Below the pieces are notes generated by a model. It was not told the origin of the DNA, ran no database searches, and saw nothing but the letters and a program-made list of their open reading frames with translations. A stretch of 18,657 nucleotides of DNA from a virus (Duplodnaviria > Heunggongvirae > Uroviricota > Caudoviricetes), in IMG/VR virus record IMGVR_UViG_2923344815_000006. The stretch is one strand, 5' to 3'. This document shows, in pieces, positions 1,623-17,289 of the stretch; positions within the stretch are counted from its first letter, which is position 1, and each line of letters opens with the position of its first letter. The position numbers and the translations under genes are program-made.

Positions 1623-2645
1623 GTGAGTTTCACGGTCGGGCCTTTTATTATCTTTTGTTTCGCCACTATGATTGCCGCAAAGCCTCATAAGGACTATCAC
1701 GAATTGCTAGGATTGCTACTTGAACGTGGCATGATTATCAATGATCGAAATCGTGCGATACGTAAGCTGTCGCAGGTTGGATATTATCGATTGTCAGGTT
1801 TTTGGTACCCATCAAGAATTATTGCGACAACAGATAAAGGTCTTTCGTACAGAACAGACCGATTTCTTGCTGGTACCAGTTTCGAGAAGACGTACGATCT
1901 ATATCTTTTTGACAAAAAACTGCGTCTTTTGATGATTGATGCTATCGAAAGAATAGAGATTCATGTTCGTTCAGTCATCGCGCATGAGGTTGGTCGCAAT
2001 GATCCACTTGCCTACATGTCATCAAAATACATTAATCCAAAATTCTCATCTGCCTTCGAGCATTGGGTGTATAAGCAAAAAGTAAAATTAGACGAAAGCA
2101 GAGATGACTGTATTGAATGGCATCGAAGCCAAGGCAAGGAGATTCCATTTTGGGTGGCGGTGGAGACCTGGGATTTTGGTCAGATGTCTAAATATTATGC
2201 GATGCTTAATGGTCATATGCAGGGGAAAATTATACGTCGTTTTGGCATTGATAATAAGCAGACATTTGCAAAATGGTTGAAGTGCCTTAATCTCATAAGG
2301 AATCGTTGCGCTCACCATTCCAGAATATGGAATAGAAAGCATCCCCGAGTTCCAGTACCGGATAATGAATACTTTGACGGACTTAATCTCCATCCAGAGA
2401 GTTGCGAGAGGATTTTTAGCGCGATCTGTATTATCTGGTACTTAGTTAAACGACTTGGTCCGGGATCAACATGGCTTCGGCAAATTGCAGACCTTATTGA
2501 CTCTAAACCAAATGTTCCCGGATGTGGATATGATTCAATGGGTTTACCTGCTAAAGGATTCCCACGAGAGAGATTCTCTCAGGACTTAGGTTTTGTTATC
2601 GCCGACAACGACCCTGTAGCTGAAGGGCGGAAAGGGAGCGATTGA
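1623..2645 (+). CDS. Abi_2 family abortive-infection protein (AbiD/AbiF-like)
   Basis: N-terminal YHELLGLLLERGMII...YYRLSGFWYP and the RNRCAHHSRIWN motif are typical of the Abi_2 family; visibly AT-rich. Start uncertain (1623 or ATG at 1666). Confidence 0.75.
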   Translation: MSFTVGPFIIFCFATMIAAKPHKDYHELLGLLLERGMIINDRNRAIRKLSQVGYYRLSGFWYPSRIIATTDKGLSYRTDRFLAGTSFEKTYDLYLFDKKLRLLMIDAIERIEIHVRSVIAHEVGRNDPLAYMSSKYINPKFSSAFEHWVYKQKVKLDESRDDCIEWHRSQGKEIPFWVAVETWDFGQMSKYYAMLNGHMQGKIIRRFGIDNKQTFAKWLKCLNLIRNRCAHHSRIWNRKHPRVPVPDNEYFDGLNLHPESCERIFSAICIIWYLVKRLGPGSTWLRQIADLIDSKPNVPGCGYDSMGLPAKGFPRERFSQDLGFVIADNDPVAEGRKGSD

Positions 2646-2674: not shown

Positions 2675-3115
2675 TTACTGAAGCAGCGTATTGATTCTTT
2701 TAATATTGTTACCCTGACGCTTCCACGCGCTGTAAATGTCTTTATCCCACGCTTTACCAGCTTTTGTTTGGTAGCCTGCTTCATTGAGCCGTTCCGCTAT
2801 CACACGCCCATTATCAAATCCCTGTCGGATGGTATCGGCAATGATCTTTATAACTGCCGTTTCGTTATATGGCTTTGGTGGGATGTTCGGCTTTCCGGCA
2901 ATAAGCGACGCAGCGGCTTTTTCCATGCGCTCCACCAGCCCAAGCATTCGTGAATCAATAGACTTTTCCGGCTGTCCCAGCTTCATGCGAATCGCATCAA
3001 CAAGCCAGGAGGTTTTATCCCCTCCAGAAGCGAGAACAGACCGATTAAACTCATCCTGCAATTCAGATGGGATGCGGAACGCGACCAGATTAGATTTGCT
3101 CATTGCAAAGACCAT
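2675..3115 (-). CDS. Hypothetical DNA-binding protein (RHH-like N-terminus; C-terminal LNEAGYQTKAGKAW recombinase-domain-like motif)
   Basis: 146-aa ORF convergent with the Abi gene, ending next to iteron block A; alternative ATG at 3103 (MSKSNL...). Confidence 0.55.
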   Translation of the reverse strand: MVFAMSKSNLVAFRIPSELQDEFNRSVLASGGDKTSWLVDAIRMKLGQPEKSIDSRMLGLVERMEKAAASLIAGKPNIPPKPYNETAVIKIIADTIRQGFDNGRVIAERLNEAGYQTKAGKAWDKDIYSAWKRQGNNIKRINTLLQ

Positions 3116-3216
3116 ATCAGTGAGTAATATCCATACAGTATACCACTGTATAACACTGTTATACGCTCAAATATCAGCCAGAAAATAACGGACCAATCAC
3201 AAAGCTATCGCTGTGT

Positions 3217-3338
3217 TGTTGGTTCAGAGCTGGGCTGTGTTGGTTCAAAATGAGTTGATGTTGGTTCAATATTTCAGAAAAAACACAATAAAAACAACGA
3301 TCTTTACAAATTGAACCAACTGAACCAACTGAACCAAC
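3217..3338. repeat. Iteron block A (origin-like): 3 direct TGTTGGTTCA repeats, AT-rich spacer, 3 tandem TGAACCAAC repeats
   Basis: Direct repeats at 3217, 3238 and 3259 (21-bp spacing); tandem inverse-orientation repeats at 3312-3338; near-identical block at 10049-10160. Confidence 0.8.
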
Positions 3339-3374
3339 ACCTTTTTGCTTATCTATATAATCTGAGAGGCAGAA

Positions 3375-3662
3375 ATGATAAGGGACAGGAAAGCTGAAGA
3401 ACTGGAGTCAAAAGGGCTATACCGGAGAGCTGCCGCACGATGGGCAGAAGTCATGATGCTGGCAGATGGCGATAAAGAACGTGAACATGCAGCAAACAGA
3501 CGCTCTGAATGTATCCGTAAGGCGGCACGCCCACCAGCAACTACAGACAGATTCGGAGATTTAAGACAGGCAGTTAAGCGGACTCATTCGGCTCTTGGTA
3601 TGGATGAGGAAGCGAGAGGGTATTTCAGGCGTTATCGCGATAAAGATTGCCAGAGACAGTAA
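3375..3662 (+). CDS. PerC-family transcriptional regulator-like protein
   Basis: 95-aa ORF; ELESKGLYRRAAARWAEVMM...RRSECIRKA resembles the PerC family common in E. coli prophages; GAGAGG Shine-Dalgarno upstream. Confidence 0.6.
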   Translation: MIRDRKAEELESKGLYRRAAARWAEVMMLADGDKEREHAANRRSECIRKAARPPATTDRFGDLRQAVKRTHSALGMDEEARGYFRRYRDKDCQRQ

Positions 3663-3920
3663 TGCTCTCTCTGTTTTGGCAAATTACCCCTCACTTTGAA
3701 GGGATCGGAGCTATAAAAATGGTGTTATCCGGCTTCCTGCATTGCAGGTTTTCGAAAGAATCAATGGGTTAGGTTATCGTGCAAATTTGCACTCTGCCAG
3801 CCAACGCAATTTCTCGTTGGCGGAAATATCAGGTATTTACTGAACGAACGGTCTACCCGCCTGTTCAACTACCAGTTGTACATGGCTGCTTTATGTGCAA
3901 ATGGTGGTGAGAGAAAATTG

Positions 3921-4022
3921 TTTGGGGGTACTTTTGGGGGTATCTCCAAAGATGTAACTGGAAAATGTCTTTATATATCAATGTATTTTTATTGTTTGTT
4001 TTGTTCCTATTATCGCACCATT
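3921..4022 (+). other. Distal att junction of the integrative element (arm-type sites plus imperfect core copy), inverted relative to thrW
   Basis: TTTGGGGGTACTTTTGGGGGTAT (3921-3943) matches rc of 17079-17104 next to the integrase gene; TCCTATTATCGCACCA (4005-4020) matches the tRNA 3-prime end with one 1-nt gap. Confidence 0.6.
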
Positions 4023-4254
4023 AAAATCAAAGAGTTACCCCATATTTAAATACACCACGTTTCCTCCTGTGCCGTATTTGTGCCATTGTAACCTTGGCAA
4101 TTCATCAAAATACTGTTCTGACATCAGGCAGTGCAGGTGCAGACATTTAAGCCAATTGCTGCCGCCATTCTTTGACGTAGTCAATCAGGGCGCGGAGCTG
4201 GTGATGCTGCCAACTTACTGATTTAGTGTATGATGGTGTTTTTGAGGTGCTCCA

Positions 4255-4530
4255 GTGGCTTCTGTTTCTATCAGCTGTCCCTCCTGTTCAGCTACTGACG
4301 GGGTGGTGCGTAACGGCAAAAGCACCGCCGGACATCAGCGCTATCTCTGCTCTCACTGCCGTAAAACATGGCAACTGCAGTTCACTTACACCGCTTCTCA
4401 ACCCGGTACGCACCAGAAAATCATTGATATGGCCATGAATGGCGTTGGATGCCGGGCAACTGCCCGCATTATGGGCGTTGGCCTCAACACGGTTTTACGT
4501 CACTTAAAAAACTCAGGCCGCAGTCGGTAA
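4255..4530 (+). CDS. insA: IS1 protein InsA
   Basis: Translation identical to the InsA ORF of copy 1. Confidence 0.9.
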
Positions 4531-4952
4531 CCTCGCGCATACAACCGGGCAGTGATGTGATTGTCTGCGCGGAAATGGACGAACAGTGGGGCTACGTCGG
4601 TGCTAAATCACGTCAGCGCTGGCTGTTTTACGCGTATGACAGGATACGGAGGACAGTTGTGGCGCACGTTTTCGGTGAACGCACTCTGGCCACACTGGCG
4701 CGTCTTCTGAGCCTGCTGTCGGCCTTTGAGGTCGTGGTATGGATGACGGATGGCTGGCCGCTGTATGAATCACGCCTGAAGGGAAAGCTGCACGTTATCA
4801 GCAAGCGTTACACTCAGCGCATTGAGCGACATAATCTGAATCTGAGACAACATCTGGCAAGGCTGGGACGGAAGTCACTGTCGTTCTCAAAATCGGTGGA
4901 GCTGCATGACAAGGTCATCGGGCATTATCTGAACATAAAACACTATCAGTAA
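4449..4952 (+). CDS. insB: IS1 transposase InsB
   Basis: Translation identical to the InsB ORF of copy 1. Confidence 0.9.
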
Positions 4953-4970
4953 GTTGGAGTCACTACCTGC

Positions 4971-5546
4971 ATGGTGTACTTTTCAATTTATTTTTGTGCA
5001 TACATGGTAGTCCCAGATGAGTTTGAACATGGCAGTATTATTTATTCCATAACATTCTATTTTTTAGAGCTAACACCAATTTTGGCTATCCTTTTGGCAA
5101 TACATATTTATTTTTCCTTAAAAAAAGAATCGACTAATTGGGAGAAGGTATGGAGAGACAGAGGATTTCTAACATCACCTAAAGATGATGCATATGAGAG
5201 TGATTTTTCTGACTTTATAACAAACTACTACTCCAGCGAACAATTCAAAAATAGACTGTCTGATGTTTGGGAAACAGCAATGTATTCCATAGGGATTATA
5301 TTATTGATACTTACTGGTATCGCTCAATATGTTTTTAACATTGACTTATCATTAAATCCTGAAAATTTAATATCGCCATTGATTTTTGGTGAGATATTGA
5401 TCTTCTCATTCGGAATTTTCTTGAGTGTTGTTCTCTGCTCATTATGCAAACTACTGACTAACAGGTATCCAGGTGAAGCAAGGAGAGCAAGAAAGGCAAA
5501 TCCATATTATCTTTTATTTCCTAATGGAGACAGCAGAGATATCTAA
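4971..5546 (+). CDS. Small integral membrane protein (3-4 predicted TM helices), 5-prime end disrupted by IS1
   Basis: 191-aa AT-rich ORF with hydrophobic stretches at about residues 1-13, 23-50, 103-122 and 133-162; starts 4 bp after the IS1 end; its predicted original start and first 15 codons lie at 798..754 on the minus strand. Confidence 0.6.
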   Translation: MVYFSIYFCAYMVVPDEFEHGSIIYSITFYFLELTPILAILLAIHIYFSLKKESTNWEKVWRDRGFLTSPKDDAYESDFSDFITNYYSSEQFKNRLSDVWETAMYSIGIILLILTGIAQYVFNIDLSLNPENLISPLIFGEILIFSFGIFLSVVLCSLCKLLTNRYPGEARRARKANPYYLLFPNGDSRDI

Positions 5547-5564
5547 GCCATCCATGGCTACCAG

Positions 5565-7670
5565 TTATTGAGCTTCTTTTTGTGATGCCTGTGCGACTCT
5601 GGTGAGCGATTGTGTGACCGTACTGATCGCTCTGTCATATGCTGTGCTACCTTTTGGCGTATTTGCCAGACGTAACAAGGCATTTCGTATAACAGGGCTT
5701 TCGTATGCCTTCGCTGCTCCGCCTACGGCACCAGCAGCAGGAACAACAAACGCAGCCGTTTTTAGCATCCCCGCTAATACTGCTGCGTTTATGATGCCAC
5801 CACCAACTAACAATCCATAAAGCTGCTGACCATTTAAGTTTTGAACGTTCGCTTTTGCCGCGTGTCTTGTATCGTTGAGGTATTTAATAACGCCGTCCAG
5901 TTCCTTTCCATGTACGCCTTTAAAGAAAGTTGCTGATTGCTTCCTGTTCCGGTGTAACGCATTAATAAACTTCTCAACACTGATATTTCCAGACGGATCA
6001 GTCGCCTTATCTACAGCATTCTGAACTATGGCTGCTCGTGCGTTTTGCCTACCATTGTCATCCAGAAGCCTGTAAAGCTGAGAACGTTCTGATGGGCTTT
6101 GGCTAAAAACGAGTTTTGTTACATCCTCAGGCGTGGCCTTGCCGCTGGCTATTGCCTTTTGAACGCGCGTTCTTCCCATCATGTCATTGAATTTAGACCA
6201 TGAGCGATCAACCCTTGCCATATTAATGGCTTCGTCTGCTCCAAGATTTTTGGCTACGGCTTTTTTCATATCCGCCGTATATGCCTTGTAGATAATATCG
6301 CTGGCTTTCTGGAGCGTATCTTTATCAACAGTGTCAGATGACGCCATAAATCGCTTTCGAAGATCGGTTCTGTTTTCCCTCGCCAGACGCAGGTCATTTG
6401 GTCCGCTGGTGATATCGTCTTTAAATTGCTGCAAGACTTTTACCGCGGCTCTATCCTGAGATTTGCCCGGGCGGCTTAACACGGCAATCTGATTGTCGAT
6501 AGCTTTTACCGTGTTTGAGAGATCGACAGGGGTATCCCCCATAGCGTCAATTATGCGGTTATATCGCTTTCCTGCTGCCTCAATGAATTTTTGTTGCCCT
6601 TTAGTCGCAGATTCATAAAGCTGTTTATCAGAAATGCCACCCAGACCATCGCTAAATGTTCTGACTAAATTTTCTCGTGCTTGTTGTTGATTCAGCCGAT
6701 TCTTACCGGTTCCAAAAAAAGGAACTCTTTCGCCTAATGTCTGAGCCTGACTCTGCATAAAGGTTTTATCTTTCAGCATGTCACTGGTCATTAACGGCAG
6801 ATTTCTTTCCGATGCAAAGTCGACAGCAGCCTTTGCTTCAGGCGACATATCACCACGAACAGCCCTCGAAACCGCACTCGCTGTATTTTCCAGCCCCTTA
6901 CCAATACCACCAATGCCAGCAGAAATTACCGTTTGTAACGGATCAATATCTTCTCCACCAGCAAGACTGGTGGCTCCCTGTAGTGCTAAATCTGTAGCTG
7001 CTGATTTTCCTATGGCACTAAGCACCGTTCCAGCCCTGCCCGCTGGTGTAAACGCCAACGCATTAGCAAGAAACGAGGTCAGGTCTTGCGGTGATAAACC
7101 CGGCTTGTTCAGGGCATAATCACCTGATGGCAGAGAAACGATAGTATTCCCCTTCTCATCCTGCCTTAATGTCGCCCCCATTCCCTGAAGAATCTTTTCC
7201 TGAGACGCGTCAGAGCCGAAAAGTTGAGACCATCCAGCCTTTAGGGCATCCATGCTTAGTGAGTTCAATTCTGGGGCAGAGGCGACATTTTGCAGTCTCT
7301 CCATCTCTGGAGTCATTCGGCTTTCGCCTGTTATAGCATCGCGCATCGCAGCCCCAAGACTGGCTCCCTGTTCTGCTGAACGCTCAAGCCCCTCTCTTTG
7401 CTGAGTAGCTAACTTTGCATACCCTGACGCAAGAGAATTATCAGATGATGTATGTTGAATATTTTGAGTTGCTGATTGGGATCGGTCTATTTCATTCGTT
7501 GATGGTAGTGGATAGGCAGCATAAAAAGCCTGCTTAGCCTGCTCTACACTTTCTCCGGCTTGCGGGGCCACGACTTCATTGAAGTATTGCTCCTGAGCCT
7601 GCGCTTTTTGTTCTGGTGCTAACGCCTGATACTGTGGAGAGGCGATAACATCTTTCCATGCTTTAGCCAT
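5565..7670 (-). CDS. Uncharacterised 701-aa Ala/Gln/Ser-rich protein with C-terminal hydrophobic Gly/Ala-rich segment
   Basis: Long ORF coupled to the upstream gene by a TAATG stop-start overlap; no enzymatic motif I recognise; hydrophobic segment LYGLLVGGGIINAAVLAGMLKTAAFVVPAAGAVGGAAKAY near the C-terminus. Confidence 0.7.
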   Translation of the reverse strand: MAKAWKDVIASPQYQALAPEQKAQAQEQYFNEVVAPQAGESVEQAKQAFYAAYPLPSTNEIDRSQSATQNIQHTSSDNSLASGYAKLATQQREGLERSAEQGASLGAAMRDAITGESRMTPEMERLQNVASAPELNSLSMDALKAGWSQLFGSDASQEKILQGMGATLRQDEKGNTIVSLPSGDYALNKPGLSPQDLTSFLANALAFTPAGRAGTVLSAIGKSAATDLALQGATSLAGGEDIDPLQTVISAGIGGIGKGLENTASAVSRAVRGDMSPEAKAAVDFASERNLPLMTSDMLKDKTFMQSQAQTLGERVPFFGTGKNRLNQQQARENLVRTFSDGLGGISDKQLYESATKGQQKFIEAAGKRYNRIIDAMGDTPVDLSNTVKAIDNQIAVLSRPGKSQDRAAVKVLQQFKDDITSGPNDLRLARENRTDLRKRFMASSDTVDKDTLQKASDIIYKAYTADMKKAVAKNLGADEAINMARVDRSWSKFNDMMGRTRVQKAIASGKATPEDVTKLVFSQSPSERSQLYRLLDDNGRQNARAAIVQNAVDKATDPSGNISVEKFINALHRNRKQSATFFKGVHGKELDGVIKYLNDTRHAAKANVQNLNGQQLYGLLVGGGIINAAVLAGMLKTAAFVVPAAGAVGGAAKAYESPVIRNALLRLANTPKGSTAYDRAISTVTQSLTRVAQASQKEAQ

Positions 7671-9148
7671 TAATCACCCCATAGTGAAGAAAAGTTACTG
7701 CTGGCTGCTGGCTGTGATACCTGCTCAGATTGCGGCAATGTCTGCGACGAAGAAGCAGTTCCTCTGTCAACTGCTGAAATAACCCGCAAAGCATCATAAG
7801 TTCGACCAGAAGCAGCTTTCAGCGAATTGAACTGGTTTTCCATCTTCCGGCGCTTGGTATCAATGGTTTTTGTGGAATCACCAGGCTGAGGGAAATACAT
7901 TTGATAATATTTGGACATTTCAGCTGGTAGGATAGATGCCCCTGTTTCCTGACGGAGTATTGCCATTATTGCGTCATTAGCATTAACAACGTATTGCTGC
8001 TCTGCTGGGCTGAGCGTTAAGTTAGCCAGCGTCCCATTACCCAAAGCATTATTAATGATCGCCACTCGCTGTGGGCTAAGCTGGTCTTTCAGTGTATCTA
8101 TTGAATCAAGAGCATCCCTAACCCTGTATGCAAATCCAGCAGCTTTTTTAGCCCCTTCTGGCGACTTTTCCATGATCTTTTGGGCTGTTGGCAAAGCTAT
8201 TGGACGAAACCCATCTCCAGATATTGGCTGGTTTAGTTTTCCCTGCTCTTCACTTCCGTCTGTGTAGTATTTTGTGACAGTGCCATCATCGTTTTCTCTA
8301 ACACTCATTAATTTTTTGGCGTTTGTATTAATTCCAGCCGCTGCCGCAAATGCCGCCGCCCCCTCTGGATCCGCCTTTAACATTTGAGCGTACTGATTGT
8401 AATTCTGCATTGCTGCTGTTGGTGCATATGCTGACGTTAACGCATTTGCTCGGCTAATATCCTGCCCTCTCGCCTGAAGTGCTTCGCCAGCCTGATTGCT
8501 GCGGATTGTCTCTGCCAACTTGCCACGCTCAATATCCCGACCTTCCATTTGATCTTTGATATCGAAATACTTCTCATGACCGAGAGAAAACAGCGCCAGA
8601 TTACCTGCGAAATGCTGGAAGCCCTGCGGGTCATTAACCTGCATTTCAGCAATAGTTTCTGGAGGGATACCTAAACGACGCATCTCCTGCTCATTATCCA
8701 TCATGAACCTGCCAAATGCGCCCTGACCAAGCGATGAGGCTACCTGTGCTTTGAGCGCCAGATTGCCATAATCATCCCTTTGAGCATCATCGACATAACT
8801 CATCCCTTTACGGACTTCCTCAAACTCTTCTGGGAATGCTGTAATAAGATTACGCATCTGCTCCCTGTCACCGGACGCATAAGCATCTGCATAAGCTTTC
8901 TGGAATGCCGCTTTACGCTCCTGCTGTTGCTGCTGCTTATAAATATCAGCAACGCCAGCCAGACCACGAAGACCTGTCAGAGCAACGTTATTTGCACCTG
9001 AGCGAGCCAGTTCATTGTTTTCGCGGATCAGACCAAGCGTTGCGTTAATGTCGCTTGCCTTTGGCGCATTCTCATTTTGCGTACCGATGCCAGCCAGAAA
9101 ACCACCAGAATTAATACCCTGTTGCCACGTAGCCATTGATTTACCCAC
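7670..9148 (-). CDS. Uncharacterised 492-aa Ala/Gln-rich low-complexity protein
   Basis: Long ORF; probable true start is ATG at 9136 (MATWQQ...) rather than the GTG at 9148; poly-Q stretch and Ala-rich tracts. Confidence 0.7.
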   Translation of the reverse strand: MGKSMATWQQGINSGGFLAGIGTQNENAPKASDINATLGLIRENNELARSGANNVALTGLRGLAGVADIYKQQQQQERKAAFQKAYADAYASGDREQMRNLITAFPEEFEEVRKGMSYVDDAQRDDYGNLALKAQVASSLGQGAFGRFMMDNEQEMRRLGIPPETIAEMQVNDPQGFQHFAGNLALFSLGHEKYFDIKDQMEGRDIERGKLAETIRSNQAGEALQARGQDISRANALTSAYAPTAAMQNYNQYAQMLKADPEGAAAFAAAAGINTNAKKLMSVRENDDGTVTKYYTDGSEEQGKLNQPISGDGFRPIALPTAQKIMEKSPEGAKKAAGFAYRVRDALDSIDTLKDQLSPQRVAIINNALGNGTLANLTLSPAEQQYVVNANDAIMAILRQETGASILPAEMSKYYQMYFPQPGDSTKTIDTKRRKMENQFNSLKAASGRTYDALRVISAVDRGTASSSQTLPQSEQVSQPAASSNFSSLWGD

Positions 9149-9314
9149 GTCCAGTTAAAGTGTAAGCCAGCGCCTTATCCATTAATCCCCGAGCAATTTC
9201 GTGGATCGTTGGCGCAACTCCTACCTCTGATTTTTTACGCTGCTCCTCCTGAATTTTCTTTATCGCTTCCATTTGCTTCTCACTTATCAATACTGGCTTT
9301 ACTGAAATAGCCAT
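9141..9314 (-). CDS. Small 57-aa protein, possible ribbon-helix-helix regulator (not in supplied ORF track)
   Basis: ATG at 9314 preceded by AAGGGGG Shine-Dalgarno; translation MAISVKPVLISEKQMEAIKKIQEEQRKKSEVGVAPTIHEIARGLMDKALAYTLTGRG; stops 5 nt before the 492-aa gene ATG. Confidence 0.5.
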   Translation of the reverse strand: MAISVKPVLISEKQMEAIKKIQEEQRKKSEVGVAPTIHEIARGLMDKALAYTLTGRG

Positions 9315-9348
9315 AACGCCCCCTTAGAACTGTATAAAACAACAGTCA

Positions 9349-9378
9349 TTATAGTTTCATAAAACGCAACATTCATCA
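9349..9378 (-). promoter_or_regulatory. Putative promoter of the 57/492/701 operon (consensus -10, weak -35)
   Basis: TATAAT on minus strand at 9354..9349, about 35 nt upstream of the 57-aa ORF start; no good -35 hexamer. Confidence 0.3.
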
Positions 9379-9407
9379 TTGTGATTGCAAAATATGAAAC
9401 AAATAGC

Positions 9408-9442
9408 ACAAAAAAATGCCACCGTTCAGTAGCTGGTGGCAT
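9408..9442 (-). terminator. Rho-independent terminator downstream of the 153-aa gene
   Basis: Minus-strand hairpin with 8-bp stem ATGCCACC/GGTGGCAT and 11-nt loop, followed by a run of 7 T. Confidence 0.7.
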
Positions 9443-9494
9443 CGTTCTGTATGTCAGGTTTTGACAGTTTTTTTATGGACTCTAAAAACTATAT

Positions 9495-9956
9495 TTATGG
9501 AGTCGCATTACTCTTCATGGCGTGAGCTTTCCTGTTCTCTCTTTGTTCCTGGTTCCATGGATAAGTGTAATTGCCACCAGCAAAGACCATATTGATTTTG
9601 TGAGGAACCATTAAAGCGATATCAGCACTCATGTCACTGAATGAAACACAGTGCAGACGTTCAAGCCATTTGTATGCTGCTGCCGCTTCTCCCCACAAAT
9701 TAATCCCTGCAAGTTCAACAATATCTCTGATGGAGCAGATATCAACCATCCCGTTAACGCCTGTAAAACGGCGTTTAAAGTCGCCAAGATACTTTCTGAA
9801 AAGAGTTGCTTTCATTGGTTCAGAAAGGTCTATGTATGGGAACACAACCACATCAAGCAGCATCTCCCTTCTGTTGTTCATCGGTATTACAGATGGCAAA
9901 TCGGATACTTTGCCAAATACATGATGAAAAGCCTTTGCGATTATCTTCATCATCAA
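9495..9956 (-). CDS. Hypothetical 153-aa protein
   Basis: ORF with GGGAG Shine-Dalgarno; probable start ATG at 9953; between iteron block B and its own terminator; no recognised motif. Confidence 0.6.
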   Translation of the reverse strand: MMMKIIAKAFHHVFGKVSDLPSVIPMNNRREMLLDVVVFPYIDLSEPMKATLFRKYLGDFKRRFTGVNGMVDICSIRDIVELAGINLWGEAAAAYKWLERLHCVSFSDMSADIALMVPHKINMVFAGGNYTYPWNQEQRENRKAHAMKSNATP

Positions 9957-10048
9957 TCTCCCACTGAAACCAGTGATGTGGTGTTCAGATTTCGTAAAAC
10001 ACTCTCTAATGCCAGCCAGATGTTGTGCTCATCAATTCAGTCACGTTG

Positions 10049-10160
10049 TGTTGGTTCAAAATGCCGTGTTGTTGGTTCAGTGTTGGTTCAATAAAAAGAA
10101 TAAAATCCTTATAAAACAATACTCTTTACAAATTGAACCAACTGAACCAACTGAACCAAC
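10049..10160. repeat. Iteron block B (origin-like), same organisation as block A
   Basis: TGTTGGTTCA at 10049, 10070 and 10081; tandem TGAACCAAC at 10134-10160; shares CTTTACAAATTGAACCAACTGAACCAACTGAACCAACACCTTTT with block A; lies just 3-prime of the helicase-like gene. Confidence 0.8.
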
Positions 10161-10185
10161 ACCTTTTCTACGCACATGAAGAAGC

Positions 10186-11316
10186 TCATTCTTCAGATGA
10201 GTTGTAATCTCCTGGCTGGTAATTGAGTACATAAACGTTTATTTGTCGTCCCTGAATACGTGGTGATTTTCTTTGGTATCCACGACCGCTGTTTGGTGGG
10301 GTTAGCATCCCGGCTTTTTTCAACACTTCAGCAAACTGTTTTGCGTTGAAACCACATGCGATCTCCTTTTCAAATGTGGCCGGGAATGTGTAGAAAATCA
10401 TTGGGCTTTCGTCATGTTCTCCACGCTGACGGTATCCGGCTAAATCTTTGATGGGCAAATCTGCCGGGCTGTATGGAAATGGTGCAAAACGGCTAAGCCC
10501 ATAGGCATTAAGAAATGCCTCCGTTTGTTCAATAATCTGCTGATGCTCTTTGTTACCTGTGCCGAACTCGCGCAACCATGCGTTATAGCTGTGCTGTATC
10601 GCATCACGGCATGTCTGAGCATCCCAGCCTGTTACAACCTCGCCTAACAACAATGCGGCCTCCAGAATGGCAAATCGCGCGGCTACACGGTGAACCTGCT
10701 CACCATAATCGGATGGGATCAGGCTTCTCCATCTGCTTTCGCAGTCACGAACAGTTTTAATAGCCTGTTGCTGGTGGTCTGCCAGCCATTTAATCCACTC
10801 ACGCCCGGACGCGCCGTGGTGATGCTGGTAAGCGTCTTTCAGTGCGTCTGCGTGCTGTTTTCCGTTCTGGTAATCGTGAAAGCGTACTGCTTTACTCAAC
10901 GGAATATTCAGCAGTCGCACCATTTGCCCGGCTTTGGTTTTTCGCCCGGAAGTAGCGATAAATGTTTCTAAATCCATTTCTCCGGTGCTGATTGCCACTG
11001 TACGCCAGCGTTTTAGATCCCGGTTTCCACCATCTTTAGCGCCTTGCAGTTTCCCTACACCGTTAAATAACGCATAGGCAGACTGTGAAACACTGACAGG
11101 ATCAGCGCCCTGACCAACTTCATCAAGCGGCATTAGTCCGTCATTGTGGGCGGCAGCTTCATTTGCCAGCCCCAGCGCGGTTCCGTACCACGTCAGCCGC
11201 AGTAAATCAGGGTTGCCGTATAAGCTGCTCGCCACGTTTGCCGTGGTGGTCTTACCTGCGCTCGACTGCTCATAGAAATGAATGCCGAACCCGTCAGCGC
11301 CCACCAGCCCAATCAA
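10186..11316 (-). CDS. DUF927/SF3 helicase-like replication protein (P4 alpha / PICI Rep C-terminal type), apparently 5-prime-truncated
   Basis: Walker A (SSAGKTT) within ...AAHNDGLMPLDEVGQ...RWRTVAISTGE...KAGQMVRLLNIP, typical of the DUF927 helicase domain; ORF-track start is a TTG; in-frame stop at 11374-11376 with no ATG upstream. Confidence 0.65.
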   Translation of the reverse strand: MIGLVGADGFGIHFYEQSSAGKTTTANVASSLYGNPDLLRLTWYGTALGLANEAAAHNDGLMPLDEVGQGADPVSVSQSAYALFNGVGKLQGAKDGGNRDLKRWRTVAISTGEMDLETFIATSGRKTKAGQMVRLLNIPLSKAVRFHDYQNGKQHADALKDAYQHHHGASGREWIKWLADHQQQAIKTVRDCESRWRSLIPSDYGEQVHRVAARFAILEAALLLGEVVTGWDAQTCRDAIQHSYNAWLREFGTGNKEHQQIIEQTEAFLNAYGLSRFAPFPYSPADLPIKDLAGYRQRGEHDESPMIFYTFPATFEKEIACGFNAKQFAEVLKKAGMLTPPNSGRGYQRKSPRIQGRQINVYVLNYQPGDYNSSEE

Positions 11317-11429
11317 TGGCGCTGCCAGTGCTGCGCCGATCCCGGTCAGCCCAGCACATGAGGCCAGTTGTTTTCAGACGCACTGATAACCTGACGGATA
11401 AGATCAATGTTTCGCATTCTGGCCCCCGT

Positions 11430-12032
11430 TTAGTGCGTCACTGGTGCTTCTGGGATGCCGTTTTCGTTTAGTTCGGCAATAAAGCTGTTGTGAAGATCGG
11501 CAAGCACTTCTCGCCCAAACGAAGTGAGTGTTCCCTGTTCGACATCGAACATGTTGCTGTAAAAAATGATGGCATTCTTTGTTCCGACATCAACACCATA
11601 TTTCTCGATCATTGCGCCCTCAATGTTGTTTGCCATAGCGAGGCGCTCTGCTACTGGATACAGCGGCATGGCGACGATGCCATTGGAATAAACAGAAACC
11701 ACGGAATGATTGCCACTGTCATCAATAATGCTGACGGTGCCGTTTCCCTTTCTCATTTCATTGATGAATGCTGTTGCTATCAGCCAGCGCCACATAATCA
11801 CGTGATGCTGTGATGTGTAATCGAAATATCCCTGGTTGCCGCCACTGGCAATAGCGAGATGTATAAACATGCCTTCATCTGGTTTATCGTCATAATCCCC
11901 GGCATCCAGACGATTTACGGCATCAATATATGAGACGGTCTCAACGCGTTCTGTCATGCCATCGTTGCTGCGGTGCATGATGTTTACGCCGTCAGGCGTT
12001 GCTTCTGCATGGAAGGTTAAGAAATTATTCAT
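11430..12032 (-). CDS. Hypothetical 200-aa protein (upstream of the helicase-like gene, different frame)
   Basis: ORF-track ORF 11430..12137; probable start ATG at 12032 (MNNFLTF...), overlapping the upstream gene stop by 8 nt. Confidence 0.5.
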   Translation of the reverse strand: MNNFLTFHAEATPDGVNIMHRSNDGMTERVETVSYIDAVNRLDAGDYDDKPDEGMFIHLAIASGGNQGYFDYTSQHHVIMWRWLIATAFINEMRKGNGTVSIIDDSGNHSVVSVYSNGIVAMPLYPVAERLAMANNIEGAMIEKYGVDVGTKNAIIFYSNMFDVEQGTLTSFGREVLADLHNSFIAELNENGIPEAPVTH

Positions 12033-12246
12033 GTTTCGCCTCGCCTGAATGATTCTGTAACTCATATTTGCCCAACAATTCGTCTGCTTCCTGAATAGCT
12101 TCTGGTACGCCATTGAGCAGTGACATAACCGCGCCAATCATTAACTTGTCTCTGTTGCTGGGGCTGGCCCCTTCAAGCCAGAACCCTAAAACAGTCTGAA
12201 CCTGTTCGATGCGACATTGCGCTTCAATGAGCTGGATGTTGGTCAT
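12025..12246 (-). CDS. Hypothetical small protein (73 aa)
   Basis: ATGA stop-start overlap with the upstream gene at 12243-12246. Confidence 0.5.
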   Translation of the reverse strand: MTNIQLIEAQCRIEQVQTVLGFWLEGASPSNRDKLMIGAVMSLLNGVPEAIQEADELLGKYELQNHSGEAKHE

Positions 12247-12506
12247 TTCGCACTCTCCACATCGATTAAACTGATATCTATCAGGGAGGTAACTTTTTGT
12301 AGCCAGCTATTGATTACTGTCGCCTGTTCCCCTCCCACCGAGGGAATAATCTCATTCATCACATGAACCAGACCTGTGCGCGCTCTGGTAAGCCGTTCAG
12401 TCGCGCAATCTGCGGGAGTGAATGTGTCTGGATATGGCTCTTCGCGCCCCAGCAATGATTCAATTTCCAGCTCACACGGATGACGATAAATTAAGTTGAT
12501 ATTCAT
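12243..12506 (-). CDS. Hypothetical small protein (87 aa)
   Basis: ATGA stop-start overlap with the upstream gene at 12503-12506. Confidence 0.5.
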   Translation of the reverse strand: MNINLIYRHPCELEIESLLGREEPYPDTFTPADCATERLTRARTGLVHVMNEIIPSVGGEQATVINSWLQKVTSLIDISLIDVESAK

Positions 12507-12697
12507 TTTTCACCCCCAAGAATTACCAGCTCGGCACGGGCATCGTTAACCAAAGATGAGCACGCTTTAATCGCATCCACGACATCAGCAGCGTCCATTT
12601 CTTCAGCCGAAAGACTGACAGCAACCAGGACAGCCGCTGCTTGCTCGATTAATTGAAGTGCGGACGTAAGGCGAGGGGTATTAATTGAGTTATTCAT
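12503..12697 (-). CDS. Hypothetical small protein (64 aa from ATG 12697; ORF-track alternative start 12754)
   Basis: Internal ATG ([10 protein letters not shown]...) 8 nt upstream of the preceding gene stop, consistent with the coupling seen along this gene chain. Confidence 0.45.
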   Translation of the reverse strand: MNNSINTPRLTSALQLIEQAAAVLVAVSLSAEEMDAADVVDAIKACSSLVNDARAELVILGGEK

Positions 12698-13757
12698 TGG
12701 TTGCCCCCGTTTTGCATGGCATTTGTCCACCTTCCAGCAGGAAATGAACGTCACGAACGGCGAGATCCAATATCGCGAGTAACGCCTTCAGTTTTTCGTC
12801 TCGTGAGGGAGAGTTGCTCACCAGAATGTCATTAATCACTTCTGTCAGTGTGATGATCTGGCTTGTGCGTTCGAGGGGATCCATATGCACATCGTAGGTT
12901 TTAATCATGTGCCACCTCCATGCGGATACGACCAGCAAAAAAGCAGACGTGATCGCGCACCAGAGAACGGCGAGCATCGCGTTCAGACTCGGCAGCAATA
13001 TGATGAATTTTGGCGGTAATTGTCGGGCAATCGCGGCGAACTGCGGCGATAATCCAGATAAATTGCGGTTTTTGGGTAGGGGTAGTAGCCAGCATGTGGC
13101 AGCCTCCATTCGATAGCATGTAACGCTACCACCGGAAACGCCAATTTCGCTGGTGGTAGCCCAGACAGGGTTGGCGTAACCGGCTCGAATGGATACCGGC
13201 GCTTCCGAAGAAGCCCCTGCCTGAGCCACCATTGATTGACAAAGGCGCTGGATTATACACCAACGCCCAAAAAATGGGTGAGTCAGACCTACGACATAAA
13301 AAAAGACGCTCGGCGCGTCATATGTCGCCATTCGATTTACCAGGACGCCAATCCCGGCACCCGTTTTATGAGGTGCCTTATAACCATAAACCGTGTTGCC
13401 GCATAACGGCAAGCTCTTTTTTATGGACTCCGAAAACTCACTATTGGAAGAACCAGAAGCACAGTACATCGCGCTCATTTCGTTAACGTCACGCGCGTGG
13501 ACGAATGTTTTTGTGGAGTCACTACACGAGCAGAACAGGTCATCTACGACCAGAAATTCTCTGGCGCAGCCGCTGACCTTCTCAACGCTAACATCATCGA
13601 CCGTGATTTCTGACATAGTTAAGGCATCCGCTCCTACCACCAGCAAATGATAAACTTTGCTTGTATCTGCTGTATTAATGCCTGACTTTGCTGTCATATT
13701 GCTGGATTTTGGCGACATGCCAGCCAGTGAAAATGTCTTCTTCTGGGCGGTTAGCAT
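12690..13757 (-). CDS. Long ORF of uncertain coding status; C-terminal 72 codons from ATG 12907 look like a genuine small helical protein
   Basis: 356-codon open frame coupled to the upstream gene, but the central part is Trp/Cys-rich and not protein-like, and 12900-13120 is open in three frames. Confidence 0.3.
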
Positions 13758-13933
13758 TTGTTAACCTCCGCGAACTCCTTCATGAAACGTGCCAGCGGTT
13801 GTACGCATGGCGATTGATACCCGTCGCGATAAAACGTCACTCGGTTGTGAGACACGCTTTCGACAGTAACGAGTGCTCCGTGGGCATCTTTGTAGCGTTT
13901 TTGAGGTTGTGGTGTTCCTGTCGGCTTAAACAT
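13751..13933 (-). CDS. DUF4222-like small phage protein
   Basis: 60-aa product from ATG 13933 (ORF-track ORF starts at 14020); RYKDAHGALVTVESVSHNRVTFYRDGYQSPCVQPLARFMKEF resembles the DUF4222 family. Confidence 0.6.
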   Translation of the reverse strand: MFKPTGTPQPQKRYKDAHGALVTVESVSHNRVTFYRDGYQSPCVQPLARFMKEFAEVNKC

Positions 13934-14759
13934 GGACCGCCTCCAGACGCTTAGCGAGCCAGCGTTGCGACAGGCGGGTGAGTTCTCCTTTGCGCTGCTC
14001 ATATTCCATGCCCATATCAATTAACGTGATATTGGTGCTTTCGAGATATGAGAGGTGCTCAAGCTGTTCTGCGTTCATATGGTCGCGAGGTTCGCCAGAA
14101 TAGCCATTTATCCGCGCCCACTGCTTAGCAGTTAGCCCACCAAGAACGATACGAGAAATCATATTGCTCTCGTTTGTGTAGTGGTGTTGCTGCGTCGTTT
14201 TCCCCTGCTCGGCACGGGCCATGTTCAGCGCATCGCACATTGGCTTAAAGTTGTTTGCGGCACTGATACGGGCTTTTAGCTGGCGACGATAGCGGGCGGC
14301 GATTTCAGGAACGCTACGCTGTAATTCTTCCTCGCACTGGATGAAATAACGACGGATAGCGCGACCCTGATCATTGCGTTCGATCATTGCCAGTTCTTTC
14401 GCCATTCCGACACTTAACAGATAGTCTTTGCCGGGTCTGCCAGAGTGCTTAATCTTGCTGTAAGCCGCGCCATTCGGGCTTTTCCCCAAATTTGGGGAAA
14501 TTGTTTTATGGACTGAGTAATCGTGCCCAATGGTGAAGTCATATTCAGAGATGCGATCAGTGATCCATGTAGAGAAGTCTTTTCCCACGCCCAACGCTTT
14601 GTGTAACGCTTTTGCGCTAACAATATTGGTTTCACGCCCACCTATATGACCAGGAATAACCGGGACAATTGCGGCAAATTCATTACCGTTAATTGTGCCC
14701 AGAGAGGCGTTCAGATGAGGGGCAGCCTCAGAAATTAATCTGCTTTTTTCGATGTTCAT
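13926..14759 (-). CDS. Phage antirepressor-like protein (Bro-N / KilAC type)
   Basis: 277-aa ORF; DYLLSVGMAKELAMIERNDQGRAIRRYFIQCEEEL is characteristic of antirepressor DNA-binding domains; GGAG Shine-Dalgarno. Confidence 0.65.
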   Translation of the reverse strand: MNIEKSRLISEAAPHLNASLGTINGNEFAAIVPVIPGHIGGRETNIVSAKALHKALGVGKDFSTWITDRISEYDFTIGHDYSVHKTISPNLGKSPNGAAYSKIKHSGRPGKDYLLSVGMAKELAMIERNDQGRAIRRYFIQCEEELQRSVPEIAARYRRQLKARISAANNFKPMCDALNMARAEQGKTTQQHHYTNESNMISRIVLGGLTAKQWARINGYSGEPRDHMNAEQLEHLSYLESTNITLIDMGMEYEQRKGELTRLSQRWLAKRLEAVHV

Positions 14760-14771
14760 TTTCAGTCTCCG

Positions 14772-15203
14772 TTAGGCGGCGTTAAACGCGTCCGGGTAGA
14801 GTTTCAGAATGTCGGCAATTTCCTGCTGAGAAAGTCCGTTGTGATCATTTATGTTCGCAAGATGGTTAATATGAGTGATCACTTTCAGAACATCACCACG
14901 GCAGGAGAAACGGTAGCGAAGGTGTGTTCCGATACCATCAGGATTCTTTTCGTCGATACGCTCCAGAGTGATTCCGAGCTGGCGTTCTAACTCTGTTGCA
15001 TAGTTACGACCAGAAGACAGACGGCAGTAGCGAAGAATGTCATTTTCTGTCCATCCCTCTATACCAGTACGCAGCATATAGACTCGGGCACGATGCTTTT
15101 TCGGCGTGCGCTTTGGTGCTTGAAGGGATTTTGTCAGGGGCGTAACATCAGATACGCGAATATCTGAATTAGCCGCCTGTAATGGGCGGTTTTTCTTTTC
15201 CAT
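14772..15203 (-). CDS. Hypothetical phage-related protein (143 aa)
   Basis: ORF coupled to alpA by a TGATG stop-start overlap; basic N-terminus; no recognised motif. Confidence 0.55.
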   Translation of the reverse strand: MEKKNRPLQAANSDIRVSDVTPLTKSLQAPKRTPKKHRARVYMLRTGIEGWTENDILRYCRLSSGRNYATELERQLGITLERIDEKNPDGIGTHLRYRFSCRGDVLKVITHINHLANINDHNGLSQQEIADILKLYPDAFNAA

Positions 15204-15406
15204 CAGGCCACCTCGTCTCTAGATTCTAATATACACTTCTCAATCCATTCATCTATTTCAGACTCAACAAAAGCAATTGCCCGACTTCCAATTTTTACCT
15301 GTTTAGGGAACCTCCCCTGACTAATAAGACGATAAATCCATGCTTTGCTATAACCAGTTCGCCTTTGAACTTCAGAGAGACGAATTAATGAATTGTAATT
15401 AGCCAT
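15203..15406 (-). CDS. alpA: AlpA-family transcriptional regulator (excisionase-like HTH)
   Basis: 67-aa product IRLSEVQRRTGYSKAWIYRLISQGRFPKQVKIGSRAIAFVESEIDEWI matches the AlpA family; located next to the integrase gene. Confidence 0.85.
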   Translation of the reverse strand: MANYNSLIRLSEVQRRTGYSKAWIYRLISQGRFPKQVKIGSRAIAFVESEIDEWIEKCILESRDEVA

Positions 15407-15833: not shown

Positions 15834-17048
15834 TCATGCGTGTTTTTCAAACACCATATGCACCACATTTCCGCCATGCTCGAGAGAATCCATATAGTCG
15901 GCATACCATTGAAGCATCTCCCGCCGTCCATCCAGATATTGCGCATGGTTGTATGTGCCACGAATTGAGTTCTTATCAACGTGAGCGAGCTGCGTTTCTA
16001 TCCACGCGGTGTTATAGCCCTGCTCATGCAAAATCGTGCTCATAGTGTGTCGGAACCCATGACCAGTTACACGTCCAGCGTAGCCAATGCGCTTAAACAC
16101 TTGGTTTATGCTGGCCTCACTCATTGTTTTCCTTGGATCATTGCGCCCGGGAAACATAAGAGGGTAATTGCCTGTTATTTCTCTAATCTTCCCAATAAGC
16201 GAAAGAGCCTGCTCAGACAATGGCACAATATGAGGCCGCCGCATTTTCATACGTGAAGCGGGTATCTCCCATATAGCCTTGTTGAAATCAATTTCATCCC
16301 ATAATGCGCCACGTAGTTCGCCAGTTCGCAAGCCGGTGATAATCAGTAGGCGAGCCGCCATAACAACCAATGCGCTTCCTGAGTAACTGGATAATGCCTT
16401 GAAAAAATCAGGTAATTCTTTGGTCGTAAGGAAAGGGTAATGATTAGATTCATGGCCTTGCATCGCGCTAGTAAGGTCTGGTGCAGGGTTATACTCTGCG
16501 CGACCAGTGACTATTGCATAGCGGAAAACTTCCCCGCACCGCTGCCTCACTTTTTTGGCTTTTTCTGTCGCACCGCGCCCCTCGATGCGCCGCAGCACAT
16601 TCAGAAGTTCAAGTGGTTTGATTTCGGCGATTGGTTTTTTGCCAATGTAAGGGAACACATCTTTGTTGAAGGCTTCGAGGATGTCTGAAGCATAACCAGC
16701 AGACCATTTTTTTAATTTGCTGCTGTGCCACTCAAGGGCAATATCTTTGAAGGTGTTGTTTAACTGCGTTTCCCGGGCAATCTTTTCCTCTCGTTTCGCT
16801 TCCATCGGATCGATACCACCAGCGATACCTCTTTTCGCATCTTCACGTTTTGCCCGAGCATCGGCTAGAGTAACCTCAGGATACACACCTAGTGCCAATA
16901 GCTTCTCTTTACCTGCTACACGATATTTAAGTCGCCAGTATTTACCTCCATTAGGTTTTACCAAGAGATACAAACCGCCACCATCGGCCAGCTTGTAAGC
17001 CTTCTCTTTTGGCTTGGCTGTGTCTATTTGACGGGCATTGAGTTTCAC
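15834..17048 (-). CDS. P4-type tyrosine integrase (DUF4102 arm-binding N-terminus)
   Basis: 404-aa product; N-terminal ...AKPKEKAYKLADGGGLYLLVKPNGGKYWRLKYR... and C-terminal R..HGFRHT..Y-type catalytic region; GTG start with GGAGG Shine-Dalgarno; adjacent to the tRNA. Confidence 0.9.
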   Translation of the reverse strand: MKLNARQIDTAKPKEKAYKLADGGGLYLLVKPNGGKYWRLKYRVAGKEKLLALGVYPEVTLADARAKREDAKRGIAGGIDPMEAKREEKIARETQLNNTFKDIALEWHSSKLKKWSAGYASDILEAFNKDVFPYIGKKPIAEIKPLELLNVLRRIEGRGATEKAKKVRQRCGEVFRYAIVTGRAEYNPAPDLTSAMQGHESNHYPFLTTKELPDFFKALSSYSGSALVVMAARLLIITGLRTGELRGALWDEIDFNKAIWEIPASRMKMRRPHIVPLSEQALSLIGKIREITGNYPLMFPGRNDPRKTMSEASINQVFKRIGYAGRVTGHGFRHTMSTILHEQGYNTAWIETQLAHVDKNSIRGTYNHAQYLDGRREMLQWYADYMDSLEHGGNVVHMVFEKHA

Positions 17049-17213: not shown

Positions 17214-17289
17214 TGGTGCCGATAATAGGAGTCGAACCTACGACCTTCGCATTACGAATGCGCTGCTCTACCAACTGAGCTATATCGGC
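17214..17289 (-). tRNA. thrW: tRNA-Thr (anticodon CGT)
   Basis: Reverse complement reads GCCGATATAGCTCAGTTGGTAGAGCAGCGCATTCGTAATGCGAAGGTCGTAGGTTCGACTCCTATTATCGGCACCA: canonical cloverleaf, CGT anticodon, CCA end. Confidence 0.95.

Follow-up and report, generated by a model that had tools for sequence, protein, structure and literature searches.

The DNA stretch analysed here (IMG/VR record IMGVR_UViG_2923344815_000006, 18,657 nt, in its full length called the window) is a phage satellite of Escherichia coli of the phage-inducible chromosomal island (PICI) type, integrated at tRNA-Thr (thrW) beside proA and closely related to the island EcCIMP1. It carries two iteron modules of the same build on either side of cargo genes. 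Block B, next to the replication gene rep, is by its layout a predicted origin of the kind already known from PICIs and the Staphylococcus aureus pathogenicity islands (SaPIs), and the distal block A, ahead of perC, appears to be a selected module of sites cognate to the same Rep, neither a scar nor a homologue of the crr site of phage P4. Comparison of related islands indicates that a two-armed origin architecture is ancestral to this Rep family, with the arms contiguous in most relatives; an origin split around its cargo has to our knowledge not been described. Virulence and anti-phage genes travel on PICIs, which are widespread satellites and whose origin is treated as one compact unit beside rep.

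Scanning the window for TGTTGGTTCA with at most one mismatch returned 15 matches against 1.6 expected, a count reached by none of 200 shuffles, and 12 of the 15 make up blocks A and B (Table 1). Each block holds three plus three opposed iterons, a spaced set (S in B, S' in A) and a tandem triplet (T and T'), flanking a 43-nt spacer of 79-84% AT. Thus the repeat scan bears out a preliminary description, made from the letters of the window, which had read two blocks of matching architecture (three spaced repeats, an AT-rich spacer, three tandem repeats) with an identical segment shared over some 6.8 kb; the segment is real, its two copies starting 6822 nt apart (3301-3345 equals 10123-10167), and as the longest identical run it measures 45 nt rather than the 44 nt given. 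The neighbours had been placed correctly as well: the helicase-like open reading frame (ORF) at 10186-11316 (minus strand) has its stop codon 24 nt from the end of B, and A lies between the gene of a 146-aa protein (2675-3115, minus) and perC (3375-3662, plus). Next to T' in the spacer of A, TTTACAAAT is invariant across genera, and a TTATAA(A/G)G core of the AT-rich spacer is likewise kept across genera. Composition added no origin signal, as GC and AT skew track gene orientation only and the strand-bias shift suggested as a check is seen at neither block. An Rfam scan found no RNA family at A or B, the match of a miRNA model across B being at chance level (E = 0.087), and a short palindrome between the rep stop codon and T was not called by a terminator scan.

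Table 1. Positions of the island's features in the window.
Feature	Position	Strand	Remarks
IS1 copies, inverted to each other	1-753; 4200-4967		first copy cut by window edge
IS1-inverted segment	754-4199		AbiD/Abi_2, 146-aa gene, block A, perC, island right end
AbiD/Abi_2	1623-2645	+	
146-aa gene	2675-3115	-	divergent from perC; N-terminus reads as ribbon-helix-helix
Block A, whole	3217-3339		fills intergenic region ahead of perC
Block A spaced iterons (S')	3217-3268	+	3 x TGTTGGTTCA at 3217, 3238, 3259; 21/21-nt phasing
Block A AT-rich spacer	3269-3311		43 nt, 79% AT
Block A tandem triplet (T')	3312-3339	+	three head-to-tail TGAACCAAC units
AT-rich -10-like motif	3343-3362	+	TTTTTGCTTATCTATATAAT; TATAAT at 3356-3361; fixed spacing past T', perC-facing
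perC-family regulator gene	3375-3662	+	no co-directional gene upstream
Uninverted inter-block cargo	4968-10048		
Weak SieA-like protein, 191 aa	4971-5546	+	
P22-type DNA-transfer protein, 701 aa	5565-7670	-	
Ejection protein, 492 aa	7670-9148	-	
153-aa ORF	9495-9956	-	
Block B, whole	10049-10161		24 nt 3' of rep
Block B spaced iterons (S)	10049-10090	+	3 x TGTTGGTTCA at 10049, 10070, 10081 (21/11 nt); opposed to T, cargo-facing
Block B AT-rich spacer	10091-10133		43 nt, 84% AT; presumed melting region
Block B rep-proximal tandem triplet (T)	10134-10161	+	three TGAACCAAC units head to tail; rep stop codon 24 nt away
rep pseudogene	10186-11417	-	start codon 11415-11417, 23 codons, then stop; 1523-nt deletion at junction 11347/11348
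AlpA	15203-15406	-	
Integrase	15834-17048	-	
tRNA-Thr	17214-17289		beside proA

As published, a PICI/SaPI origin directly follows the 3' end of rep and has two opposed iteron sets, of at least two iterons each, on the two sides of an AT-rich region (PMC6092414, PMC9371898). Block B has both the position and the opposed iterons around an AT-rich spacer, and the initiator that belongs to such an origin is represented by homology and a fold match to SaPIbov1 Rep and Cch, and by co-variation between the iteron and Rep residues 891-896, the gene being a pseudogene in the window. Block A departs from the definition in one feature, lying about 7 kb from rep and ahead of perC.

The intact Rep, as found in the closely related island of E. 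coli strain F5656C1, has 918 aa and comprises Zn_Ribbon_Prim, Toprim_3 and DUF927 regions. Its primase part aligns with P4 alpha over residues 7-361 (33% identity, E = 2e-41), past which nothing aligns, and by phmmer its helicase part matches SaPIbov1 Rep (8tch; E = 1e-11). The ORF at 10186-11316 represents the last 376 rep codons, which encode half of the DUF927 helicase and the presumed iteron-reading C-terminal domain, a product that would exist only if expressed. As a profile of the C-terminal 119 residues matched nothing among PDB sequences, the fold was reached through an AlphaFold2 (AF2) model of these 376 residues (mean pLDDT 74.8; 86-94 in the C-terminal domain), for which Foldseek returned 5dgk (Cch) and 8tch (SaPIbov1 Rep) at E of about 1e-8 over 370-380 columns. 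Intact Rep is a fusion of a zinc-ribbon/Toprim primase of P4-alpha type with a self-loading helicase of SaPIbov1-Rep/Cch type, and its C-terminal domain probably reads the 9-bp iteron GTTGGTTCA. SaPIbov1 Rep and Cch of the staphylococcal cassette chromosome SCCmec share with it the self-loading helicase and the C-terminal iteron-reading domain, matched over nearly the full length of the model; identity to them is only about 16%, and the family of the window is set apart by its P4-alpha-type Toprim primase at the N-terminus and its 9-bp iterons. For SaPI Rep a winged-helix/iteron model has been described, and the SaPI origin resembles block B in its opposed iterons on both sides of an AT-rich region 3' of rep, but forms a single contiguous unit, unlike the split arms here (PMC9371898).

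The iteron varies in sequence by Rep lineage, with eight types among the relatives. When 48 full-length Reps are aligned, those of the GTTGGTTCA type are set apart from those of the GTTGTCTCA type by only 7 fixed differences in 918 positions, and 5 of these fall within residues 891-896, which read RKS-PRI in the former and GRV--RE in the latter; the excess of within-type over between-type identity is greatest at the C-terminus. In the AF2 model residues 891-896 belong to the beta-hairpin after helix 325-334 (fragment numbering), where a winged helix would have its wing. From the clustering of fixed differences and the position of the hairpin, we infer that this six-residue patch reads the iteron, and it appears to set specificity. 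A separate exchange concerns larger parts of the gene: the island L004 of E. coli E50 (11720-14071) and island L001 (12787-15543) are 95% identical in DNA over the part of rep that codes for the primase, but the modules for helicase, DNA binding and origin are different (DUF5906 and GGTACAGGT iterons in the former, DUF927 and GTTGGTTCA in the latter), suggesting that helicase, reader domain and origin were swapped as one unit within a single gene.

To place the two blocks in the family, intact Rep was used to scan one genome per species, which gave 77 loci spanning the Enterobacterales, 62 of them with usable sequence past the rep stop codon. The layout of block B recurs 3' of rep in 59 of the 62, with two or three tandem iterons about 25 nt past the stop codon, about 45 nt of AT-rich sequence and then at least two, usually three, opposed spaced iterons; this retention and the agreement with the published definition uphold the earlier likening of B to a PICI origin. 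In an Erwinia metagenome-assembled genome (L065) the tandem set directly 3' of rep has grown to at least seven head-to-tail GTTGGTTCA units in place of three. What lies further downstream divides the 59 loci into three classes. About 30 are contiguous, that is T, the AT spacer, five spaced iterons, one reversed iteron and a T' inverted relative to T all fit within about 255 bp. Thirteen are split, a simple block B being followed 0.3 to 9.0 kb on by a second block of reversed spaced iterons, AT spacer and T', with highly variable cargo in between; these include lineages with other iterons (L045 with GGTCGGTT, L066 with CTTATCCCA). The other 16 have block B alone, and for 11 of them a full 10 kb of downstream sequence is present. 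Where a second arm occurs it is always of the resident iteron type, across lineages with GTTGGTTCA, GTTGTCTCA, GTCGGTTCA, ACGGGTTA, GTCGGGTA, GTGGGTTA, CTTATCCCA and GGTCGGTT. In the DUF5906-Rep island of strain E50, the island's own iteron recurs in a second cluster 1 kb past the first; the block A on the perC side is non-cognate there, and its T' and spacer have been deleted.

Block A itself is conserved in a pattern that points to selection on the iterons. Among nine split loci from eight genera, its mean pairwise identity is 0.87-1.00 in the iterons and 0.92 in T', as against 0.39-0.56 in the inter-iteron gaps and 0.29-0.39 in the outer flanks, and the 21-nt phasing is kept. Since these A blocks share the 21/21 phasing and TTTACAAAT, both missing from many B blocks, they are orthologous among themselves and have not been continually copied from B. 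Such orthology across eight genera, with iterons kept and gaps degraded, speaks against A being a passive by-product, i.e. a duplication scar or tandem-island remnant, recent or homogenised with B, that would serve as a recombination patch only. The 45-nt run identical in both blocks, the break of cargo homology at the block edges and the mosaic character of these islands would all suit that explanation, but A is inverted rather than tandem, no rep remnant adjoins it and the arm is present with at least eight iteron specificities; we consider a by-product highly improbable. On its orientation, the lack of a rep remnant and the orthology across genera, descent from a second tandem island was ruled out. 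Nor are the repeats a generic element, the outcome that the preliminary description had named as fatal to its reading: A is conserved as a second site in related elements, next to replication genes. Matches to the repeat occur in 527 of 5426 complete E. coli genomes, at a median of two places each, and every locus examined belongs to islands of this PICI family.

Replication of P4 requires a second iteron site in cis, and A and B could be imagined as such an obligatory pair, with the initiator binding both, looping the DNA and needing both in cis. The systems are alike in having two iteron sites kilobases apart for one primase-helicase, one of the sites directly 3' of the initiator gene, in their homologous primase domains and in crr units that also have iterons around an A-rich stretch, and the second cognate site kilobases away is conserved here. 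In the P4 record (NC_001609) crr follows alpha directly after a terminator and consists of two 120-bp direct repeats, each with type I iterons around the A-rich stretch, and ori, 4.7 kb off, is found between vis and sid, with the alpha operon separating it from crr. In contrast, block B is a single unit and not a pair of 120-bp repeats, its iteron is GTTGGTTCA and not the type I iteron TGTTCACC, and the helicase and DNA-binding half of Rep, a DUF927 protein of SaPIbov1-Rep/Cch type, is neither homologous nor alignable to alpha. P4 ori is of other structure and precedes the alpha operon, whereas A repeats the full origin in mirror image and follows the cargo. Furthermore, the 11 single-arm relatives with 10 kb of downstream sequence and no second site argue against an obligatory pair and make a general requirement in cis unlikely, and the non-cognate A of strain E50 has decayed. 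We thus regard a P4-style replicon as improbable, and its resemblance to ori/crr as a functional analogy at most. The two-site likeness drawn in the preliminary description is lost with the differences in DNA-binding half, iteron, structure of both sites and location of the second; its comparison of B with crr keeps the position 3' of the initiator gene, but neither the iteron nor the repeat structure.

Among PICIs, EcCICFT073 is similar in that its origin lies immediately 3' of pri-rep with two iteron sets around an AT-rich region, and in its int-alpA order, unidirectional genes and perC as an accessory gene (PMC6092414). It differs in its iteron (CTGTCTACC) and unrelated Rep, the family of the window having the DUF927 fusion with GTTGGTTCA, and in its outer inverted tandem iteron pairs, which are about 190 nt apart whereas the arms of the window are full origin copies about 7 kb apart around cargo; it is without the TTTTGCTTATATATA motif that is conserved after T' in the present family. 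Rep-dependent autonomous replication has been assayed only for EcCICFT073, with its different Rep (PMC6092414). EcCIMP1 of E. coli MP1, a PICI induced and packaged by the P22-like phage Kapi1 (PMC11773190), shares the thrW/proA site, gene order, Rep and P22-type ejection-protein cargo with the window, and in it B likewise adjoins rep and A, in inverted orientation, adjoins perC at a distance of 8.4 kb; it differs in that the inter-block cargo is largely other, rep is intact and A is unflipped. Helper-dependent induction is known only for this relative, and the paper that reports it makes no mention of an origin or iterons (PMC11773190). Literature searches, figures not covered, returned no description of a second or split PICI origin.

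A further conserved property ties A to the gene that follows it. This gene is always co-directional and often ssb, and an alignment of 40 loci with several iteron types gave the consensus TTTtg.tTataTATA-aaAaa after T', or NNN-TTTTGCTTATATATA-AAAAA, at a fixed spacing whatever the iteron type and the next gene (ssb, perC or others). In the window TATAAT starts 17 nt after T' and ends 13 nt ahead of the perC ATG. As perC has no co-directional gene upstream, its promoter must be within the 259-nt intergenic region, and because A fills this region, occupancy by Rep would have to overlap the promoter region. The motif may be a weak or activator-dependent -10 element, or an unwinding or host-factor element. 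It is possible to read A as a purely transcriptional operator, on which Rep or a truncated C-terminal fragment bound to T' would switch the ssb, perC or accessory operon with no part in replication; the fixed junction of T' to a -10-like motif facing the next gene in the 40 loci, the contiguous-form T' without an inner AT spacer and the frequent ssb, useful when Rep is present, are congruent with this. A simple operator would however not need the three phased S' iterons and the 43-nt AT-rich spacer that the split form of A keeps under purifying selection, nor is a canonical promoter called at A, and we deem it unlikely that A is an operator only.

We instead favour, with moderate confidence, a mechanism in which Rep acts at both arms, B fires and A serves as an auxiliary site. 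Rep made on induction would occupy both arms; at B it would bind the opposed iteron sets and open the AT-rich spacer between them, with B firing as the origin. As a distal mirror-image Rep-binding module (S'-AT-T'), A would help Rep to load or the DNA to loop, and would also put the promoter region of the downstream operon, here perC, under Rep control; it may be an auxiliary origin, a means of controlling that promoter, or both. In addition, cargo would be swapped by way of the conserved arms, which would provide anchoring homology. In this lineage kilobases of exchangeable cargo lie between the two arms.

Several points weigh against this mechanism. The sequences show the anatomy of the blocks, their conservation, the co-variation of iteron and Rep and the boundaries of the cargo, while binding of Rep to A, melting or firing of A and an effect on the promoter are each something we infer. 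A strict sigma-70 scan called no promoter at A, there is no -35 element, its expected position falling inside the last iteron, and a transcript starting about 7 nt after TATAAT would begin in the perC Shine-Dalgarno sequence, so that the motif could be a melting or host-factor element and not a -10. The distal arm is dispensable for at least some replicons, as 16 of the 59 relatives are one-armed, including the 11 with a full 10 kb downstream, and the contiguous form is not a strict equivalent of the split one, since its T' lacks an inner AT spacer. Co-variation might also be mimicked if A and B simply share descent, although the long-term retention of A across genera argues for selection. Finally, the contiguous outer arm may already be drawn in Fig. 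2a of PMC6092414.

In this strain both modules have been altered. The segments shared with the island of F5656C1 are 99.9-100% identical, and three differences separate the two: in the window, segment 754-4199 is inverted between two inverted copies of the insertion sequence IS1, rep has suffered the 1523-nt deletion, and an extra 2.1 kb with Ash and AntA genes is present. When reverse-complemented, the corresponding F5656C1 stretch, where IS1 is missing, matches segment 754-4199 at 100% identity, and the 9-bp IS1 target duplication is itself inverted (CACCATGCA at 754-762, TGCATGGTG at 4968-4976), which at an inverted IS1 pair is the signature of an intramolecular replicative transposition inverting the segment. 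The IS1 inversion turned A and B from inverted into direct repeats. Congruent with this, A is inverted relative to B in all five intact E. coli relatives examined, from two integration sites and with the blocks 7.4-8.4 kb apart, and the opposite orientation before inversion, which the preliminary description had proposed, is thereby confirmed. With rep broken and A flipped, both modules are orphans in this strain unless Rep comes from another island.

The blocks delimit an exchangeable cargo region, again as first proposed. Between F5656C1 and EcCIMP1, rep and B are 98.8% and block A 87% identical in DNA, and homology ends at the last iteron of A and 58 nt past B. Across the split loci, 97 ORFs between the arms fall into 73 protein clusters, 60 of which are singletons; among the products are AbiD, a Fic protein and proteins of tape-measure-like, ejection and transglycosylase type. 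The ejection and DNA-transfer homologues of the window match phrog_917 and phrog_770, and in related islands their slot is taken by other proteins of the ejection, transglycosylase or tape-measure-like kind. Such cargo suggests that the island tampers with, or borrows, the injection machinery of its helper phage. In the island of Serratia sp. H1w (L028), a near-perfect LexA-box-like palindrome, TACTGTATATACATACAGT, lies about 130-150 nt past block B, ahead of the first cargo gene.

The 146-aa protein next to A looks like a ribbon-helix-helix regulator by reading of its sequence; it had no Pfam or PADLOC match and a weak PHROG match only. It had been put forward as a binder of the iterons, and was rejected as such. 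Its gene has unrelated operator-like repeats of its own (CAGTATACCACTGTATAACACTGTTATAC, at about 3120-3150), and tandem GTAAGACA (two to three copies) or CTGTATAAC repeats stand upstream of every homologue across genera, unchanged by iteron type (L022, L025, L027, L043 and L063). Moreover, homologues lie beside A in six split loci and elsewhere, in loci with contiguous origins, 2-9 kb from any iterons.

The remainder of the window is that of a Gram-negative PICI. In the window and its relatives, Pfam and annotation show int followed by alpA, unidirectional genes, a specific att site, a pri-rep-ori module and no virion or lysis module, though P22-type ejection protein genes are present in the cargo. 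On the minus strand the order is integrase, AlpA, an AntA-type antirepressor, an Ash-family region, small ORFs and the DUF927 ORF, and past B follow the ejection and DNA-transfer proteins, the weak SieA-like ORF, IS1, perC, the 146-aa gene, AbiD and the second IS1. Two Rfam matches reach gathering score, the C4 antisense RNA (13149-13236, minus strand, 79.5 bits) and isrK (13299-13376, minus strand, 67.1 bits); both fall within what is listed as an 'Ash' ORF of 355 aa, a short way upstream of the gene for the AntA antirepressor. In its make-up (c4 - icd/ash - ant) the region resembles the RNA immunity modules of P1 and P4, here carried by a PICI. The short repeats of two families, ATTTYGYGAC.AGTACGCGCGCG (983-1005, 1268-1290 and 13477-13499) and TTTTTTATGGACTCYRAAAACT (9469-9490 and 13417-13438), connect the leader upstream of isrK/C4 with one or two cargo sites; Rfam had no match in 700-1700 or 9150-10200. 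A copy of the former repeat also stands beside block A in a Serratia island (L064).

A more far-reaching reading, which we hold only tentatively and think unlikely as it stands, is that the origin is one two-armed, mirror-symmetric structure with an accessory-gene hotspot inside, Rep loading at both inverted arms on induction. If this were true, amplification would begin with the cargo, i.e. ejection-protein mimics, Abi and Sie-like genes, and be strongest there, the arms could loop together and the distal arm would switch on the downstream operon, coupling replication, cargo dosage and accessory-gene expression through one protein; the cargo would be a cassette exchangeable by homologous recombination among islands of one Rep specificity. 

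The patch at residues 891-896 could help to predict which island replicons are compatible and which compete. For a large enterobacterial PICI family, the data point to a second, mirrored arm at which Rep probably binds, tied to the start of the downstream gene and with room for variable cargo between the arms. The replication of a satellite, the expression of its accessory genes and the exchange of its cargo are linked here in a concrete way that can be tested, and the tractable EcCIMP1/Kapi1 pair has exactly this architecture.

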